64,000 nt of DNA from Bacilli bacterium (lineage in GTDB: Bacteria; Bacillota_I; Bacilli_A; RF39; UBA660), in contig JAFQXM010000003.1 in assembly GCA_017406955.1 (NCBI GenBank), forward strand, positions 14,527 through 78,526. The letters run 5' to 3'. Each line of letters opens with the position of its first letter. The stretch's first letter is position 1. Position numbers and translations under genes: made by a program. This document shows, piece by piece, positions 3,663 to 49,907 of the stretch. The notes beneath the pieces were generated by a model. The model had not been told where the DNA came from. It made no database searches and was given only the letters and a program-made list of their open reading frames with translations.

Positions 3663-5812
3663 CGCATTAGCCTTTCTACTTTAATAACATATTTTATTTT
3701 ATCTAAAGCAAGTATTACTTTATTTAATTGCTCTAAACTATTTACGTATAAATGAGCTTCATATGTAAGTTGTTCTGTTTTATTTATAGTTTTTATTCCA
3801 TCTACATTTACATTTAACATAGATATGGCCTGTATTAAATCTACTATATGATTATCTAGTGTATTTGAGTAAACTAATAATATAGCTAAATACCTATTAT
3901 TAGTATTATCATTCCAATTAACTTCTACATTTCTATTTTCTAACATTGATAGGTTATGACAATTACTTCTATGTACATTAATACCATTACCTTTAGTAAT
4001 ATATCCAATAATATCATCACCATATACAGGCATACAACAATTAGCTAAATTAACTCTTACTTTATCTATACCACTAACTATAATATCTGCTTCTTTATCT
4101 TTAGAAGTTACTTTAACTACTTTAGGATTTTTATCTTCTTGTTTATGAATAACATTGATTACAGAATTAGGAGAATTTTTACCATTACCAACTACTAAAT
4201 ATATTTCATCTAAGTTCTTAACTTTTAATTCTTCACATATCTTTTCAATATTTTCATCAGTAAAGAATTCTTTTAGTGGTATTTTTCTTTTTCTTAAAGT
4301 CTTCTCTAAATTATATTTACCACGTTCTAAATATATTTCTCTTTCACTCTTTGTAAAGAAACTTTTTATCTTATTCTTTATTTGAGTAGATTTAACTATA
4401 TTAATCCACTCTTTAGATGGTTTAGAATTTTTATTAGTAATTATTTTTACTATATCATTATTTTTTAATTCATAATTTAGGGGAACTATATTATTATTTA
4501 CAATGGCTCCTGTAGTGGTCTCTCCTACTTTAGTATGTATTTTATAAGCAAAATCTATTGGAGTTGCCCCTTTAGGTAATTCCATTACATCTCCTTTAGG
4601 AGTAAATACATAAATATTATTATTTAATACTTCATTTTTTACACTTTTAACAAATTCTTCACTACTCATTTTATCTTTAGATAAATCAATTATTGATTTA
4701 AAAAATTGTAATTTTTGTTCTGTAGTTGATTGAAGATTTGCTTTAGTTTTAGAACCTCTATTTTCTTTATATGACCAATGAGATGCAATACCATTTTCTG
4801 CTACTTCATCCATCTCATATGTTCTTATTTGTATTTCGTATAATAAACCATCTACACCAAATACTGTGGTATGTAGAGATTGATACATATTAGGTTTAGG
4901 CATGGCAACATAATCTTTAAATCTATTAGGAAGTGGTCTAAATTTAGAATGAATTATACCTAAAGCTAGGTAACATTCTTGCTCTGTATTTACTAATATT
5001 CTTAAAGCTAACAAATCATATATATCACTAAATTTTTTACCTTTATCTAATTTATTATAAATACTATATATACTTTTAGCTCGTCCTTTTATTTCATGAT
5101 TTATATTATGTTCACTAAGTAGATTAACTACTTCTTTTTGCATAACATTAACAGAATTATCTCTTTCTAATTTAGAATTATTTAGTTTTTCAACTATATC
5201 ATAAAATACATCTGGTTTTAAGTATCTTAGAGCTAAATCTTCTAACTCACTCTTTATTTTATGAATACCTAAGTGGTGCGCAATAGGTGCAAGTATTTCT
5301 ATGGCTTCTTTAGCCTTTACTTTTTGTCTATCTGCAGGTACTGCCCATAATGTTCTCATATTGTGAAGTCTATCACATAATTTGATAATGATTGCTCTTA
5401 CATCTTCACTCATACCAACTATTATTTTTTTATAATACTCTATTAAATAATCATTTTCTGTTGAAAAATTAATTTTACTTAATTTAGTAACTCCTTTTAC
5501 TAAATTAGTAACTACTTCTCCAAATTCTTTTTCCATCTCTTCTGGAGTGCAATCACAATCTTCTAATACATCATGTAAAAGTCCTGCCATAATTGTTTCT
5601 GAATCTGCATAAATATCTGAAAGAATTAAAGCAACATTTAAAGGATGTGTGATATATGGTTCCCCACTCTTACGATATTGTCCTTCGTGTTTCAAAGACG
5701 CAAAAAGATAGGCCTTCTCTATTAAAGCAAGCTTATCTTCTTCTATATATCCTTTTAATTTATCTTTCACACTATCAAACGTGATGTTATCCATAGATGG
5801 CAAAGGAATCAT
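3659..5812 (-). CDS. relA: Bifunctional (p)ppGpp synthetase/hydrolase Rel
   Basis: HD motif (LLHDVLED), YQSLHT, EIQIRT, TGS domain (ATPIDFAY), C-terminal ACT-like region. Confidence 0.96.
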   Translation of the reverse strand: MIPLPSMDNITFDSVKDKLKGYIEEDKLALIEKAYLFASLKHEGQYRKSGEPYITHPLNVALILSDIYADSETIMAGLLHDVLEDCDCTPEEMEKEFGEVVTNLVKGVTKLSKINFSTENDYLIEYYKKIIVGMSEDVRAIIIKLCDRLHNMRTLWAVPADRQKVKAKEAIEILAPIAHHLGIHKIKSELEDLALRYLKPDVFYDIVEKLNNSKLERDNSVNVMQKEVVNLLSEHNINHEIKGRAKSIYSIYNKLDKGKKFSDIYDLLALRILVNTEQECYLALGIIHSKFRPLPNRFKDYVAMPKPNMYQSLHTTVFGVDGLLYEIQIRTYEMDEVAENGIASHWSYKENRGSKTKANLQSTTEQKLQFFKSIIDLSKDKMSSEEFVKSVKNEVLNNNIYVFTPKGDVMELPKGATPIDFAYKIHTKVGETTTGAIVNNNIVPLNYELKNNDIVKIITNKNSKPSKEWINIVKSTQIKNKIKSFFTKSEREIYLERGKYNLEKTLRKRKIPLKEFFTDENIEKICEELKVKNLDEIYLVVGNGKNSPNSVINVIHKQEDKNPKVVKVTSKDKEADIIVSGIDKVRVNLANCCMPVYGDDIIGYITKGNGINVHRSNCHNLSMLENRNVEVNWNDNTNNRYLAILLVYSNTLDNHIVDLIQAISMLNVNVDGIKTINKTEQLTYEAHLYVNSLEQLNKVILALDKIKYVIKVERLMR

Positions 5813-46984: not shown

Positions 46985-47035
46985 AATTATCACCTAATCT
47001 TTATAAAATTATATCATAAATATATTTTAAATCAA

Positions 47036-47061
47036 AATAAAACCCTTGTTAAAACAAGGGT
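47036..47061 (-). terminator. Terminator after tRNA-Ser
   Basis: ACCCTTGTT-AA-AACAAGGGT hairpin plus U-tract. Confidence 0.7.
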
Positions 47062-47072
47062 ATTATTCATAA

Positions 47073-47163
47073 TGGCGGAGCAGGAGAGATTTGAACTCTC
47101 GCGCCGGTTGCCCGACCTACACCCTTAGCAGGGGCGCCTCTTCAGCCTCTTGAGTACTGCTCC
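47073..47163 (-). tRNA. tRNA-Ser(GCT)
   Basis: GGAGCAGTACTCAAGAGG...CCCCT-GCT-AAGGG, long variable arm, TTCAAAT, CCA. Confidence 0.95.
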
Positions 47164-47249
47164 AAGCTCTGCAAATATAATATTACATTATATTTACTTT
47201 GATGTCAATAAATATAAAGAAAAAACTCCTAATAGGAGTTACTTTCAAT

Positions 47250-47326
47250 TGGTGACGAGTACGGAATTCGAATCCGTGAATGCTGCCGTGAAAGGGCAGT
47301 GTGTTAAGCCGCTTCACCAACTCGCC
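47250..47326 (-). tRNA. tRNA-Glu(TTC)
   Basis: CTGCC-CT-TTC-AC-GGCAG anticodon arm, encoded CCA. Confidence 0.95.
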
Positions 47327-47329
47327 ATA

Positions 47330-47406
47330 TGGCGCCTCAACTAGGACTTGAACCTAGGACCCCTTGATTAACAGTCAAGTGCTCTAACCAGCTGAGCTAT
47401 TGAGGC
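47330..47406 (-). tRNA. tRNA-Asn(GTT)
   Basis: CTTGA-CT-GTT-AA-TCAAG, encoded CCA. Confidence 0.95.
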
Positions 47407-47412
47407 AATTAA

Positions 47413-47489
<77 letters not shown>

Positions 47490-47511
47490 ATAAACATTAA
47501 TACTTTATAAG

Positions 47512-47626
47512 TTTACAATACTTTTAAGCTTTTTGCAAGTAAAATTTAACTCGCACTAATAGAATACTATAATTATTATATTAAAGTCAAGAAATAATAT
47601 ACTTTTTTTTATAAAAGTATTGTAAA
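47512..47626. repeat. Perfect 15-bp inverted repeat with 85-bp spacer between divergent tRNA promoters
   Basis: TTTACAATACTTTTA (47512-47526) and TAAAAGTATTGTAAA (47612-47626). Confidence 0.8.
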
Positions 47627-47665
47627 TTTACTAATTTTGTTATAAAATAAATTTGCAAATTAAAT

Positions 47666-47741
47666 GGACTGTTAGCTCAGTTGGTAGAGCAACTGACTCT
47701 TAATCAGTGGGTCTAGGGTTCGAATCCCTAACAGTCCACCA
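47666..47741 (+). tRNA. tRNA-Lys(CTT)
   Basis: ACTGA-CT-CTT-AA-TCAGT, GGTTCGAATCC, CCA. Confidence 0.95.
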
Positions 47742-47754
47742 TTTTATAATACTA

Positions 47755-47782
47755 AGAGGAACTTGAAAAAAGTTCCTTTTTA
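47755..47782 (+). terminator. Terminator after tRNA-Lys, overlapping the next promoter
   Basis: AGGAACTT-GAAA-AAGTTCCT hairpin plus T-tract. Confidence 0.75.
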
Positions 47783-47796
47783 TGTTATTATGTATT

Positions 47797-47905
47797 TAGC
47801 AAGAAATCTTGCATAAAATAAAAAAGGAACACTTAATATTAGCGTGTTGAGTGTTACCTATAATAGGTTTCACCTAACTATGCTATAGTTAGGTGAGTTT
47901 CTTTT
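47797..47905 (+). ncRNA. Putative antisense antitoxin sRNA
   Basis: Promoter TTGAAA-17-TATTAT with extended TG (47763-47791); terminator TCACCTAACTAT-GCT-ATAGTTAGGTGA-GTTTCTTTT; convergent with a small hydrophobic ORF. Confidence 0.6.
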
Positions 47906-47987
47906 ATATTAAAACTATAAAAAGCAATAATATTAAAAGAAGGATAATTATGATTAAGGAAGATATTAATATGTCTTTCTTTTTCAT
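47904..47987 (-). CDS. Putative type I toxin, 27-aa hydrophobic peptide MKKKDILISSLIIIILLLILLLFIVLI
   Basis: Below the ORF-track cutoff; GGGAGG RBS; promoter TTGTTT-17-TATACT; single TM helix. Confidence 0.7.
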   Translation of the reverse strand: MKKKDILISSLIIIILLLILLLFIVLI

Positions 47988-48122
47988 TGTATCGCCTCCC
48001 TTCTCTTAGAAGTTTGGCCCCACCCAACTATTAAGTATTCCGAACCATAGTATACTACTAATTAACATATAAAACAACCTGACAAGATTGTTTTTTTGTA
48101 TAAAAAAGATAGCTGGGCTATC

Positions 48123-48620
48123 TTAATCATCATTTAGTATTTTTTGTTTTTCTTTTTTAAATTCTTCTCTAGTTATTACTTTATCATCTAACAATTTTTT
48201 TAGTTTATTGAGTGAATCAAACTTATCATCAAAATCCTTTTTATAACTTTTCTTTTTCCTCTTTGATTTAGTATCTTTGGAATAAAAACAATAGTTTATA
48301 AAATAAAATACCACACTAATAATGATTATAATAGCAATACAAGTTAAAAAATACACAATGTTTTCATATATAGGTTTTTCATATATAAGTGCTAACAATA
48401 AAAATAATAGACCAATTATAATTGAATTAATTAAGGAAACTTTCTTTATTATTTTGTCATCTCTTTTCTTTTTTATTAGTAAAACTACTATTGGAATAGT
48501 AAGATACATAAAATTAAAAACAACAAATGACTGAGTAGCCAATAATAAGTCTTTCATAATAATATATATAACTAACCATAATGCAATTAATAAAACAAAC
48601 GAAACATAAATTTTTTTCAT
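48123..48620 (-). CDS. Membrane protein with C-terminal SHOCT domain
   Basis: Four TM helices plus LKKLLDDKVITREEFKKEKQKIL. Confidence 0.8.
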   Translation of the reverse strand: MKKIYVSFVLLIALWLVIYIIMKDLLLATQSFVVFNFMYLTIPIVVLLIKKKRDDKIIKKVSLINSIIIGLLFLLLALIYEKPIYENIVYFLTCIAIIIIISVVFYFINYCFYSKDTKSKRKKKSYKKDFDDKFDSLNKLKKLLDDKVITREEFKKEKQKILNDD

Positions 48621-48683
48621 TACAATCACTCCGATAAAAACTTTTATAGGATTATTATATACAAACAAAAAAAGATAGTCAAA

Positions 48684-49907
48684 CTATCTTAATTTACCTT
48701 TAGAACCTTTCATTCCTTTTAAACCACCTCTAGCTGCAAATCCTTGTAAGATATTAGTATCAAAAGAATGAACTTTACTTAGTCTCTTCTTATAATCTTT
48801 AACTCCAAGATTTATCATATCATCAAGTAATGTTGTGAAATTAACATCTTTAGCATTCCATAGATAGAAAGCTAGACTTCCTGGAATAGAGTTTATTTCA
48901 TTTACATAAACTTCTTTCTTTTTATCATCTATTAAGAAATCAATTCTACAGTTTCCACCTGAACCTAAAACTTTGAATGATTTCATAGCTACTTCTTGTA
49001 CTTTCTCTTCTATATCTTTATCTAGTTTAGCAGGTAATTTTCTAAGTGCAGATGCCATTCCACCTTTTCCAGATTTAACAGGCATTTTTCCACCTTTAAG
49101 TTTGCCTTTTCCTCCTCCAACATATTTATCTTCATATGTTAAGAACTTATTTCCAGATAACACTTCTTCTATAGCACTTACTTTTTGATGTTCATAATTA
49201 CCCATAACAGCAATATTTACTTCTTTTAAGTTAGATACTACTTCTTCTACTATAATCTTTCTATCATATTGAATAGCCTCATCTATTCCTTCAACTAATT
49301 CTTCTTCATCTTTACATACTGATATTCCTACGCTAGATCCAGTAGTAGCAGGTTTAATAATAACTGGATATTTTAATTTAGAAACCTTTTTAATCACAGC
49401 TTCACTATCTTGTTTATAATCAGTATCATAAAACCATGCATACTTAGTAATAGGAAGCCCAGCTTCTTTCCAAATAGCTTTCATATATACTTTATCTTGT
49501 CCAACTACTGATCCATAAACATCACTTCCAACAAATGGAATTCCAATAGATTGTAGATATCCTTGTAATACACCATCTTCTACATTAGTACCATGTACTA
49601 TCGGGAATGCTATATCTATATCAGTTACTACTGTTTTAGGGAAAGATTTCTTTTGTAATACATAACTTCCTTTATTGTAATATAAAACTACATTCTTACC
49701 ATATTTTTTAATTAAAGATAAGTCTTGATATACTTCTATATCTTTTAACATATCTCCTGTATACCATTCGCGTGTCTTAGTAACATAAATTGGTATAACA
49801 TCATATTTTTCTTGATCCATTTTATTCATAGCTTGAAGTGCTGAAATAATACTAACTTCATGTTCTACACTTTCTCCACCATAAATAACTCCTACTTTAA
49901 TCTTCAT
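48684..49907 (-). CDS. ddl: D-alanine--D-alanine ligase
   Basis: GGESVEHEVS, HGTNVEDG, KP..GSSVG, YEDKY and NEINSIPG motifs. Confidence 0.93.
   Translation of the reverse strand: MKIKVGVIYGGESVEHEVSIISALQAMNKMDQEKYDVIPIYVTKTREWYTGDMLKDIEVYQDLSLIKKYGKNVVLYYNKGSYVLQKKSFPKTVVTDIDIAFPIVHGTNVEDGVLQGYLQSIGIPFVGSDVYGSVVGQDKVYMKAIWKEAGLPITKYAWFYDTDYKQDSEAVIKKVSKLKYPVIIKPATTGSSVGISVCKDEEELVEGIDEAIQYDRKIIVEEVVSNLKEVNIAVMGNYEHQKVSAIEEVLSGNKFLTYEDKYVGGGKGKLKGGKMPVKSGKGGMASALRKLPAKLDKDIEEKVQEVAMKSFKVLGSGGNCRIDFLIDDKKKEVYVNEINSIPGSLAFYLWNAKDVNFTTLLDDMINLGVKDYKKRLSKVHSFDTNILQGFAARGGLKGMKGSKGKLR

Follow-up and report, generated by a model that had tools for sequence, protein, structure and literature searches.

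A chromosomal, multi-copy type I toxin-antitoxin-like module in RF39 Bacilli, defined by sequence comparison

We analyzed a locus in a stretch of 64,000 nucleotides (nt), hereafter the window, from a Bacilli bacterium of the RF39 lineage (UBA660; assembly GCA_017406955.1, contig JAFQXM010000003.1, positions 14,527-78,526 of the forward strand). The locus, at 47763-48080 of the window and about 320 bp long, is best read as a type I toxin-antitoxin-like module that occurs in multiple chromosomal copies and is known from sequence comparison alone, and we put the probability of this reading at roughly 70%. Its minus strand would give an mRNA for a 27-residue membrane peptide, the two ends of which pair with each other, and its plus strand a convergent antisense RNA. 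On comparative grounds this RNA architecture is close to certain. A type I architecture had been proposed in the original prediction made from the window, and the comparisons below support it with a selected open reading frame (ORF), a covarying fold-back, an antisense promoter and terminator, a masked Shine-Dalgarno (SD) sequence, and multiple, tandem and decayed copies.

Boundaries and paralogues of the module

Alignment of 20 copies with their flanks indicated that similarity runs from the -35 box of the peptide promoter to the -35 box of the opposing promoter, and that the flanks are unrelated. The coordinates first proposed match this entire unit. Four terminator-like sites were found in the region, against 0.2 expected by chance. 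A BLAST search of the source genome (G000, 1.14 Mb) with a 364-bp region returned four further long copies, five including that of the window. A profile of the aligned unit detected seven full copies, one on contig C1 (the window copy), five on C11 and one on C4, and an RNA model of the antisense part detected two further divergent loci, on C5 and C11. The search for paralogues suggested at the outset has revealed that the source genome carries at least nine related modules. Six of the nine are on contig C11 (154 kb, 14% of the assembly), where the module at 150 kb adjoins a helix-turn-helix (HTH) gene and a DpnII-type restriction endonuclease.

Family-wide values below refer to an alignment of 76 copies, of which 19 were found by BLAST and not chosen by arm sequence, and 57 came from an exact pattern (-10 box plus 5' arm). 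The BLAST-found copy L047, the 5' region of which is unrelated, was excluded from the alignments. Among 80 pattern loci, 20 were unusable (12 cut by contig ends, eight outside the expression for the 3' arm), and three pattern matches were left out as apparent repeats of rows already present. Of the eight loci outside the expression, the 3' arm can be seen in six, next to a variant U tract, and two have the 5' arm only.

The peptide open reading frame

The ORF of 27 codons plus stop occupies 47987-47904 of the minus strand and encodes MKKKDILISSLIIIILLLILLLFIVLI, a basic N-terminus followed by a single hydrophobic span. GGGAGG (48000-47995) lies 7 nt upstream of the ATG, and the leader is 54 nt long. 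The ORF, this ribosome-binding site and the promoter TTGTTT-17-TATACT all lie where the original prediction had placed them. An ORF of 22-32 codons is kept in 71 of the 76 copies and has 27 codons in 47 of these. Length differences among intact ORFs are mostly whole codons; in L098, a 20-nt insertion shortens the ORF to 24 amino acids (aa). Summed column entropies at the three codon positions were 17.0, 5.7 and 22.5 in 42 distinct 27-codon sequences, second positions being the most conserved, and the mean dN/dS was ~0.17 (769 pairs). These values indicate that the peptide ORF is a gene under purifying selection.

Across the 34 distinct peptides of 27 aa, residues K3, K4, L7, I15, L21 and L22 are invariant. 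The consensus begins M-x-K-K-D-(F/I/L)-L-I and continues with ~19 hydrophobic residues; the hydrophobic span forms the C-terminus of most copies, and some finish in K, KK or N. The window peptide contains no Pro or Gly, and among the residues listed per position for the 34 peptides (up to five each) P occurs once and G never. A Pfam search with the peptide (E up to 10) gave nothing but one unrelated match and no Fst family, and NCBIfam gave no family match. A search of a protein atlas with a naturally longer, in-frame version (32 aa) of a paralogue gave a best score of 0.76, below the useful level; the nearest feature match, non-significant at this score, was a cluster of small stress-response membrane proteins.

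Fold-back of the peptide mRNA

The predicted promoter of the peptide mRNA (48049-48077, minus strand) consists of a -35 box TTGTTT (48077-48072), a 17-nt spacer and a -10 box TATACT (48054-48049). A TTGNNN -35 box lies 16-18 nt from the -10 box in 67 of the 76 copies; the -10 box belonged to the search pattern for 57 of these 76, and the -35 box did not. The first base is predicted to be G48041, 8 nt past the -10 box. A U tract (UUUUUUAUUUU, 47815-47825, minus strand) that is conserved in the alignments follows the 3' arm described below and is the predicted mRNA end, with a putative role in termination. The predicted mRNA is thus ~225 nt long, from 48041 to ~47815.

The 5' arm of the fold-back, GGAAUACUUAAU + A + GUUGGGUG (48021-48041, minus strand), starts at the predicted first transcribed base. 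The 3' arm, CACUCAAC ... AUUAAGUGUUCC (47826-47853, minus strand), is split by an 8-nt hypervariable bulge (47845-47838). The arms form 20 bp, 48041-48021 with 47853-47826, and also appear as an inverted repeat (I3) at the DNA level. Folding of a 227-nt minus-strand RNA gave a minimum free energy of -69.9 kcal/mol (z = -7.4) that none of 200 shuffles equaled, and the fold-back is part of the optimum. This long-range pairing had been proposed from the window sequence, and it is ~99% paired over the 76 copies.

Covariation analysis, which had been recommended as a check, revealed that the pairing is conserved and that five pairs have compensatory changes. The RNAalifold consensus of the 19 BLAST-found copies contained the fold-back, with several compensatory pairs. 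Over all 76 copies, pairing was kept in 98.8% of the cells of the outer helix and 99.0% of those of the inner helix. Compensatory changes were clearest at the alignment pairs 5-304 (CG 56, UA 12, UG 7), 7-302 (UA 38, UG 27, CG 10), 12-297 (UA 63, CG 10) and 22-279 (GC 63, GU 8, AU 4); at the fifth, 10-299, the change is in one cell only. A tested structure of 35 pairs, comprising the fold-back, the outer pairs of the SD hairpin and the post-stop hairpin, was 94.8% paired, compared with 34-41% with slid partners, and its covariation score was reached by none of 500 column shuffles. When the copies were folded one by one, the outer fold-back helix had a probability >0.8 in 74 of 75.

The non-Watson-Crick cells of the fold-back comprise 149 G-U and seven A-C combinations on the mRNA strand, a bias that a constraint on the DNA or on the opposite strand cannot explain. 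The remark that the mismatches in the window are G-U compatible on one strand only therefore extends to the whole family. These comparisons indicate that the fold-back is selected, and on the mRNA strand.

The SD sequence is predicted to be occluded by a local hairpin (47994-48018, minus strand) in which GCC...GGC closes CUUCU/AGAAG and which holds the GGGAGG at 48000-47995. The mean pairing probability of the SD sequence was 0.86, and it exceeded 0.8 in 53 of 75 copies. The outer pair of the hairpin covaries (GC 40, GU 21, AU 12), and other copies have ACCUCC/GGAGGU in place of the hairpin of the window.

Because the covarying 3' arm lies beyond the post-stop hairpin, the mRNA is predicted to read past this hairpin to the U tract at 47825-47815. 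Pairing of the 3' half of the hairpin with the 3' arm was rejected; it was 75.8% paired, and two of its positions are almost never paired. A local terminator hairpin ahead of the U tract, GGUAACACU/AGUGUUCC, was likewise rejected as a selected structure. It was 89.5% paired and less conserved than the fold-back, and one of its pairs is broken in 35 of the 76 copies, where the 3' arm changed along with the 5' arm; it may form transiently.

In addition, the inner part of the 5' arm can pair with the post-stop hairpin's 5' half. This pairing is kept in 97.5% of cells and has compensatory changes at 19-212 (GC 62, AU 11, GU 3) and 22-209 (GC 71, AU 4), so that column 212 covaries with two partners. 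This second pairing could be a transient co-transcriptional one, by analogy with the metastable hairpins of aapA3 and hok described in an excerpt of PMC6733600. Equally, it could be a contact in trans, the partner being the identical sequence that the antisense terminator stem contains. Outside the overlap of the two RNAs, such pairing in trans would involve only 9 nt, between the 5' arm and the antisense terminator stem, and is indistinguishable from the alternative in cis.

The convergent antisense RNA

The original prediction of a convergent plus-strand RNA of about 110 nt, with its own promoter and a strong terminator, agrees with the present analysis, which places the promoter at 47763-47791 and a hairpin followed by TTTCTTTT at 47869-47897. 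The predicted promoter has a -35 box TTGAAA (47763-47768), a 17-nt spacer and a TGn-extended -10 box TATTAT (47786-47791), and transcription would start near 47798. TTGNNN-17-TANNNT was found at a fixed distance in 73 of the 76 copies, and TGn in 68. The predicted RNA is ~108 nt long, from 47798 to ~47905, and a 109-nt plus-strand RNA (47798-47906) folded at -38.2 kcal/mol (z = -6.7).

Three hairpins are predicted in this RNA. The 5'-terminal one (47799-47812; GCAAG AAAU CUUGC) lies beyond the U tract of the mRNA, and a hairpin of at least 4 bp is predicted there in all 76 copies; the first ~20 nt have a mean folding energy of -5.2 kcal/mol, compared with -0.7 kcal/mol for shuffles. The middle hairpin (47826-47853), CACUUAAU / GUUGAGUG, presents in its loop the complement of the mRNA bulge. 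RNAalifold on 40 diverse sequences of the 76 gave eight pairs for it, two of them compensatory, and many of its pairs are U-G, which would be C-A mismatches on the mRNA strand. The third hairpin belongs to an intrinsic terminator (47869-47905) of 12-13 bp (47869-47897) followed by UUUCUUUU (47898-47905), the U tract of which overlaps the stop codon of the peptide. This terminator hairpin is the post-stop hairpin of the other strand. Compensatory changes were found in 9 of its 11 pairs, and only on the plus strand does a U tract come after it. Non-Watson-Crick cells of the hairpin, read on the mRNA strand, are 37 A-C and six G-U, that is, wobbles of the antisense strand. These results indicate that the antisense RNA is likewise selected as RNA.

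The predicted antisense RNA is fully complementary to the final ~90 nt of the mRNA (47815-47905), reaching the peptide stop codon. The repeat being inverted, the antisense RNA matches the 5' arm of the mRNA in sense and is not complementary to it. Structure predictions suggest that the same DNA folds differently on each strand: segments of the 3' arm would pair with the 5' arm in the mRNA and with each other in the antisense RNA. The 8-10 nt that the fold-back leaves unpaired between the halves of the 3' arm are the most variable columns of the unit, with an entropy of 1.38 bits per column compared with 0.18 and 0.31 in the arm halves.

The antisense half is the best conserved part of the unit. 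It turns up even without a toxin half that BLAST can recognize, the latter being missing or too divergent: many matches cover only positions 20-118 of the query. One relative has 16 matches to the RNA model. A trans-acting family of small regulatory RNAs, of which the ORF and the fold-back are by-products, would account for these observations. It would leave unexplained the coding signature of the ORF, the wobbles of the fold-back that suit the mRNA strand only (149 vs 7), and the conservation of the mRNA promoter, the SD sequence and the SD hairpin. Moreover, several matches that seemed to consist of the antisense part only adjoin divergent toxin ORFs of the types B and C described below. We consider this explanation very unlikely.

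Scaffold variants and decayed copies

Two further types of module share the RNA scaffold and differ in the peptide. Type B is represented by a tandem module of the source genome at C11 32672-32899 (locus L167, ~3673-3900), immediately upstream of another copy, that of C11 33012-33238. Its peptide, MNKRVYYIKLCRYICIILSLLTILVLVIKK, has 30 aa and a GTG start and is unrelated to that of the window, and its RNA layout is the same; type B-like peptides were found in other genomes at L019, L021 and L092. Type C comprises the loci at C5 161909-162131 (minus strand) and C11 110201-110417 (plus strand), found only by the antisense RNA model. The arms of type C differ (GGAAUACCUAUGGUUAGGUU...) and the ends pair alike; the peptide starts with MN(E/K)LI and has a common motif SICLN and a charged tail that differs between copies through a frame change. 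In the type B locus and the two type C loci, whose arms differ in sequence from those of the window copy, folding paired the ends with z = -8.2, -7.8 and -4.8 (mononucleotide shuffles).

Five aligned copies have no scored ORF. The ORF is lost or changed in L064 (CTG start), L078 (ATA start) and L062 (a 7-nt deletion causing a frameshift); L087 has a TTG start and may still function, and L092 carries a type B peptide that the ORF filter missed. Among decayed copies that keep the antisense half, the 5' part of the ORF is deleted in L038 and a premature stop is present in L042. The pattern of decay in L064, L078, L062, L042 and L038, in which the antisense part is kept, fits a harmful gene.

The peptide could instead be a harmless small membrane protein, such as a subunit of a membrane complex or a regulator, the mRNA of which is under cis-antisense control, with no toxin-antitoxin pair involved. 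Purifying selection on the peptide, the chromosomal position of the loci among housekeeping genes and the nearest, non-significant atlas match (a stress-response membrane protein cluster, 0.76) are all consistent with this, and the type I reading, toxicity included, is itself drawn from sequence. A subunit or regulator would hardly be expected to occur as nine paralogous modules in a genome of 1.14 Mb, where one scaffold carries three unrelated peptide types, to form tandem copies, or to lack a fixed gene neighbor. Nor would it call for layered repression by an SD hairpin, a fold-back and an antisense promoter that exceeds the sense promoter in strength, or for retention of the antisense part in copies with an inactivated ORF. 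All of these features are characteristic of type I toxins rather than subunits, and we regard the harmless protein as an unlikely explanation.

Distribution and genomic setting

BLAST matches to the module were found in 22 of 41 genomes in a sample of relatives (the source genome counted), often several in each. Sampling of the order gave matches at E <= 1e-8 in 123 of 301 genomes and in 58 of 128 genera. The RNA model matched 6 of 13 genomes of the family to which the window belongs, and none of 137 genomes from 25 other families of the same class. It gave 16 matches in one relative (G009, 1.2 Mb), so copy number can far exceed that of the source genome. Carrier genomes measure 0.8-1.6 Mb. 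The exact pattern occurs in at least 119 stretches of public species-representative genomes. Among the 80 matches listed, most are titled as metagenome-assembled genomes (MAGs) of uncultured Bacilli, 'Tenericutes' or 'Erysipelotrichaceae', and MAGs from the gut of rabbit, deer, goat, mouse and human are represented. A few listed matches are labeled otherwise (Muribaculaceae, Clostridia, Eubacteriales, Bacillales, Mycoplasma); several titles reading 'uncultured Muribaculaceae bacterium', one 'Clostridia' and one 'Eubacteriales' look like assemblies with a wrong taxonomic label.

The copies sit between chromosomal genes, with flanks such as penicillin-binding protein (PBP)/LysM, Hsp20/phosphoketolase, two-component system/cupin, DUF362/HTH gene with DpnII, FIST/TsaD, and, for the window copy, SHOCT membrane protein/tRNA-Lys. 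No transposase or integrase domain was found among the 24 nearest flanking ORFs scanned (of 44 listed), and searches of phage and plasmid collections and, with the exact pattern, of viral contigs gave no match to the module.

A multi-copy unit of ~230 bp, bounded by inverted repeats and scattered between genes, also resembles a miniature inverted-repeat transposable element, whose terminal inverted repeats, recognized at the DNA level, would be the 21-bp arms. Conservation, however, runs ~40 bp past each arm to both promoters, and the interior is a selected ORF. The arm mismatches are nearly all G-U on one strand (149 vs 7), which recognition as DNA would not produce. Together with the negative results from the mobile-element collections and the flanking ORFs, this makes a transposable element most improbable.

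The original prediction placed the locus downstream of tRNA-Lys. The tRNA-Lys gene is indeed present at 47666-47741, but its vicinity has no general meaning: of seven copies checked in the source genome only that of the window lies near a tRNA, and a functional link was rejected as incidental. The terminator hairpin after tRNA-Lys (47754-47780) contains the antisense -35 box (47763-47768) and part of the spacer, and in several other copies a small palindrome likewise holds this box, in its loop or its stem. Such an arrangement could shield the module against read-through on either strand. On the other side, the upstream neighbor (48123-48668, minus strand) encodes a 181-aa multi-span membrane protein with a C-terminal SHOCT domain (E = 3.9e-6, just under the Pfam cut-off), and its terminator (48124-48106) directly precedes the module.

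Comparison with known type I systems

According to an excerpt of PMC8594479, type I systems encode hydrophobic peptides of 20-60 aa on mRNAs of 150-400 nt. The 27-aa ORF and the predicted ~225-nt mRNA fall within both ranges. At the level of sequence and covariation, the module also has a gene for an antisense RNA that is complementary to the mRNA, served by a separate promoter and terminator, and its ribosome-binding site is predicted to be occluded (SD 0.86 paired, with a covarying closing pair). Excerpted text of PMC12390103 limits the known type I systems to three phyla: Proteobacteria, Firmicutes and Tenericutes. An Rfam scan of 47000-48700 on both strands (E up to 10) brought only tRNAs to the gathering score and no type I antitoxin family, and no description of the module was found among the papers listed in searches of open-access text. 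The suggestion that the peptide may belong to a new family holds in that no Rfam, Pfam or NCBIfam family was matched.

The par system (Fst/RNA II) of Enterococcus and other Firmicutes, including SprA1/SprA1as, resembles the module in its convergent promoters, toxin mRNA of ~230 nt and peptide of ~30 aa (excerpts of PMC7472228 and PMC8594479). Both have an SD-masking hairpin (5'-SL in par) and a helix masking the extreme 5' end (5'-UH), as described in part of PMC7472228, and an antisense RNA at the 3' side that leaves the ORF body free of overlap (PMC7472228 and PMC8594479, in excerpt). As far as these texts describe par, its two RNAs share one bidirectional terminator, whereas those of the module have separate terminators and overlap by ~90 nt; the U tract of the post-stop hairpin is present on the plus strand only. 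In the excerpt of PMC7472228, direct repeats (DRa, DRb) make the par antitoxin complementary to the translation start, whereas the repeat of the module is inverted. The same excerpt gives Fst a PXXXG motif and a charged C-terminal tail; the peptide of the module has neither, as had been noted for the window peptide.

TxpA/RatA, BsrG/SR4 and related families of Bacillus also have a convergent antisense RNA over the 3' part of the toxin mRNA, but there it overlaps the ORF as well, whereas that of the module reaches the stop codon only (excerpt of PMC8594479). In Rfam, 47000-48700 gave no match to the antitoxin families of these systems. RNase III degrades the toxin/antitoxin duplex in these systems. 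TxpA/BsrG-type toxins are longer, with charged C-termini, and to our knowledge a flush 5'-3' clamp is not known for TxpA/BsrG-type mRNAs.

Like the module, hok/Sok of Enterobacteria and AapA/IsoA of Helicobacter have a 5'-3' long-distance interaction in the full-length mRNA; that of the module is without an anti-SD sequence. In the two known systems the anti-SD is in the 3' end and 3' trimming activates the mRNA, whereas in the module the SD is masked locally. Their antisense RNAs target the 5' part or the ORF start, in contrast to the 3' arm in the module, and their hosts are Proteobacteria and Epsilonproteobacteria. Covarying metastable pairings and several chromosomal copies are described for them in an excerpt of PMC6733600. 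A leader ORF like mok was rejected: an overlapping out-of-frame ORF of >=30 aa is present in only 11 of 71 copies, and the antisense RNA lies at the 3' end. ShoB and Ibs of Escherichia coli, compared by description only, have fewer than 30 residues, carry charges only at the N-terminus and end within the hydrophobic span, as the peptide of the module does. Unlike the antisense RNA of the module, those of ShoB and Ibs are located on the 5' side or across the ORF.

By its predicted RNAs, the layout is that of a Gram-positive type I system with a 3' convergent antisense RNA, to which a 5'-3' interaction of the hok/AapA kind and a 5'-end helix and SD stem-loop of the par kind are added. The module appears to depart from the defining features of each family compared, and it matches no curated RNA or protein family. 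These comparisons indicate a real type I toxin-antitoxin-like family that has not been described so far.

Proposed mechanism

In the type I reading, a weak promoter would drive the ~225-nt mRNA for the 27-aa membrane peptide, and a stronger convergent extended -10 promoter the ~108-nt antisense RNA. The flush 5'-3' helix would keep the mRNA stable and compact, like the 'upstream helix' of par RNA I, and probably doubles as the terminator stem, and the SD hairpin would keep translation low. Since the antisense RNA and the 5' arm are alike in sense, we infer on good grounds that it acts by displacement, competing for the 3' arm and taking it away. Pairing would nucleate where the loop of the middle hairpin of the antisense RNA meets the hypervariable bulge of the mRNA 3' arm, and this bulge would make each paralogous pair specific for its own partner. 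The ~90-bp duplex would then free the mRNA's 5' end and be a substrate for double-strand-specific and 5'-end-dependent RNases. If the supply of antisense RNA fell, the peptide would be made and would damage the membrane.

Several points weigh against this reading. The SD sequence is masked locally, so an effect of the fold-back on translation is not evident, and the activating step cannot be named. An intrinsic terminator with a long-range helix as its stem is unusual, and the local alternative hairpin is paired in only 89.5% of cells. Copy L047 (relative G001, contig C1) has an intact ORF and a normal 3' half next to an unrelated 5' region; its promoter, 5' arm and SD hairpin are replaced, and if expressed it would lack the fold-back. 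The loci lie among housekeeping genes and not on mobile elements, so addiction of the plasmid type is not their role. The search pattern that yielded 57 of the 76 copies prescribes the greater part of the 5' arm, where only five degenerate positions are free, and related genomes are non-independent samples.

Public RNA-labeled runs add little to either side. The share of sampled words of the module in these runs was 0.18 or less, and contigs of relatives (four runs, 80% likeness) cover 47757-48035. Of two contigs from RNA libraries, one of 156 nt (X1) differs at three places over 47846-47989, and one of 411 nt (X3) stops no more than ~5 nt from the predicted mRNA start. The lack of contig cover at 48049-48105 merely reflects non-conserved flanks. 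As assembled contigs of relatives, in which neither strand nor ends are visible and DNA may be present, these data also count among the weaknesses of the reading and were not taken as support.

A broader picture is possible, although we hold it tentatively and the odds are somewhat against it. The modules would form a type I superfamily restricted to one lineage of reduced-genome gut Bacilli, with one scaffold carrying at least three unrelated toxins. In a way so far undescribed for the compared families, the antitoxin would displace the mRNA 5' end from a terminal 5'-3' clamp, and an address code of bulge and loop would prevent cross-talk among the 9-16 pairs in a cell. G-U asymmetry would allow one DNA to hold the structures of two strands, and the second partner of the 5' arm would be a co-transcriptional switch.

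Significance

The whole family can be defined from sequence, with its promoters, both RNAs, their structures and the peptide, and the covariation evidence is unusually clean. It can serve as a marker for small RNA genes in genomes annotated without any. The carriers belong to an uncultured gut lineage with genomes of ~1 Mb, yet they have up to nine or more copies, which raises the question of why so many are kept. Differing mainly in one loop, these copies would form a natural set of orthogonal antisense/mRNA pairs. They would also represent a variant of antisense control, in which an antisense RNA is set against an intramolecular 5'-3' clamp.

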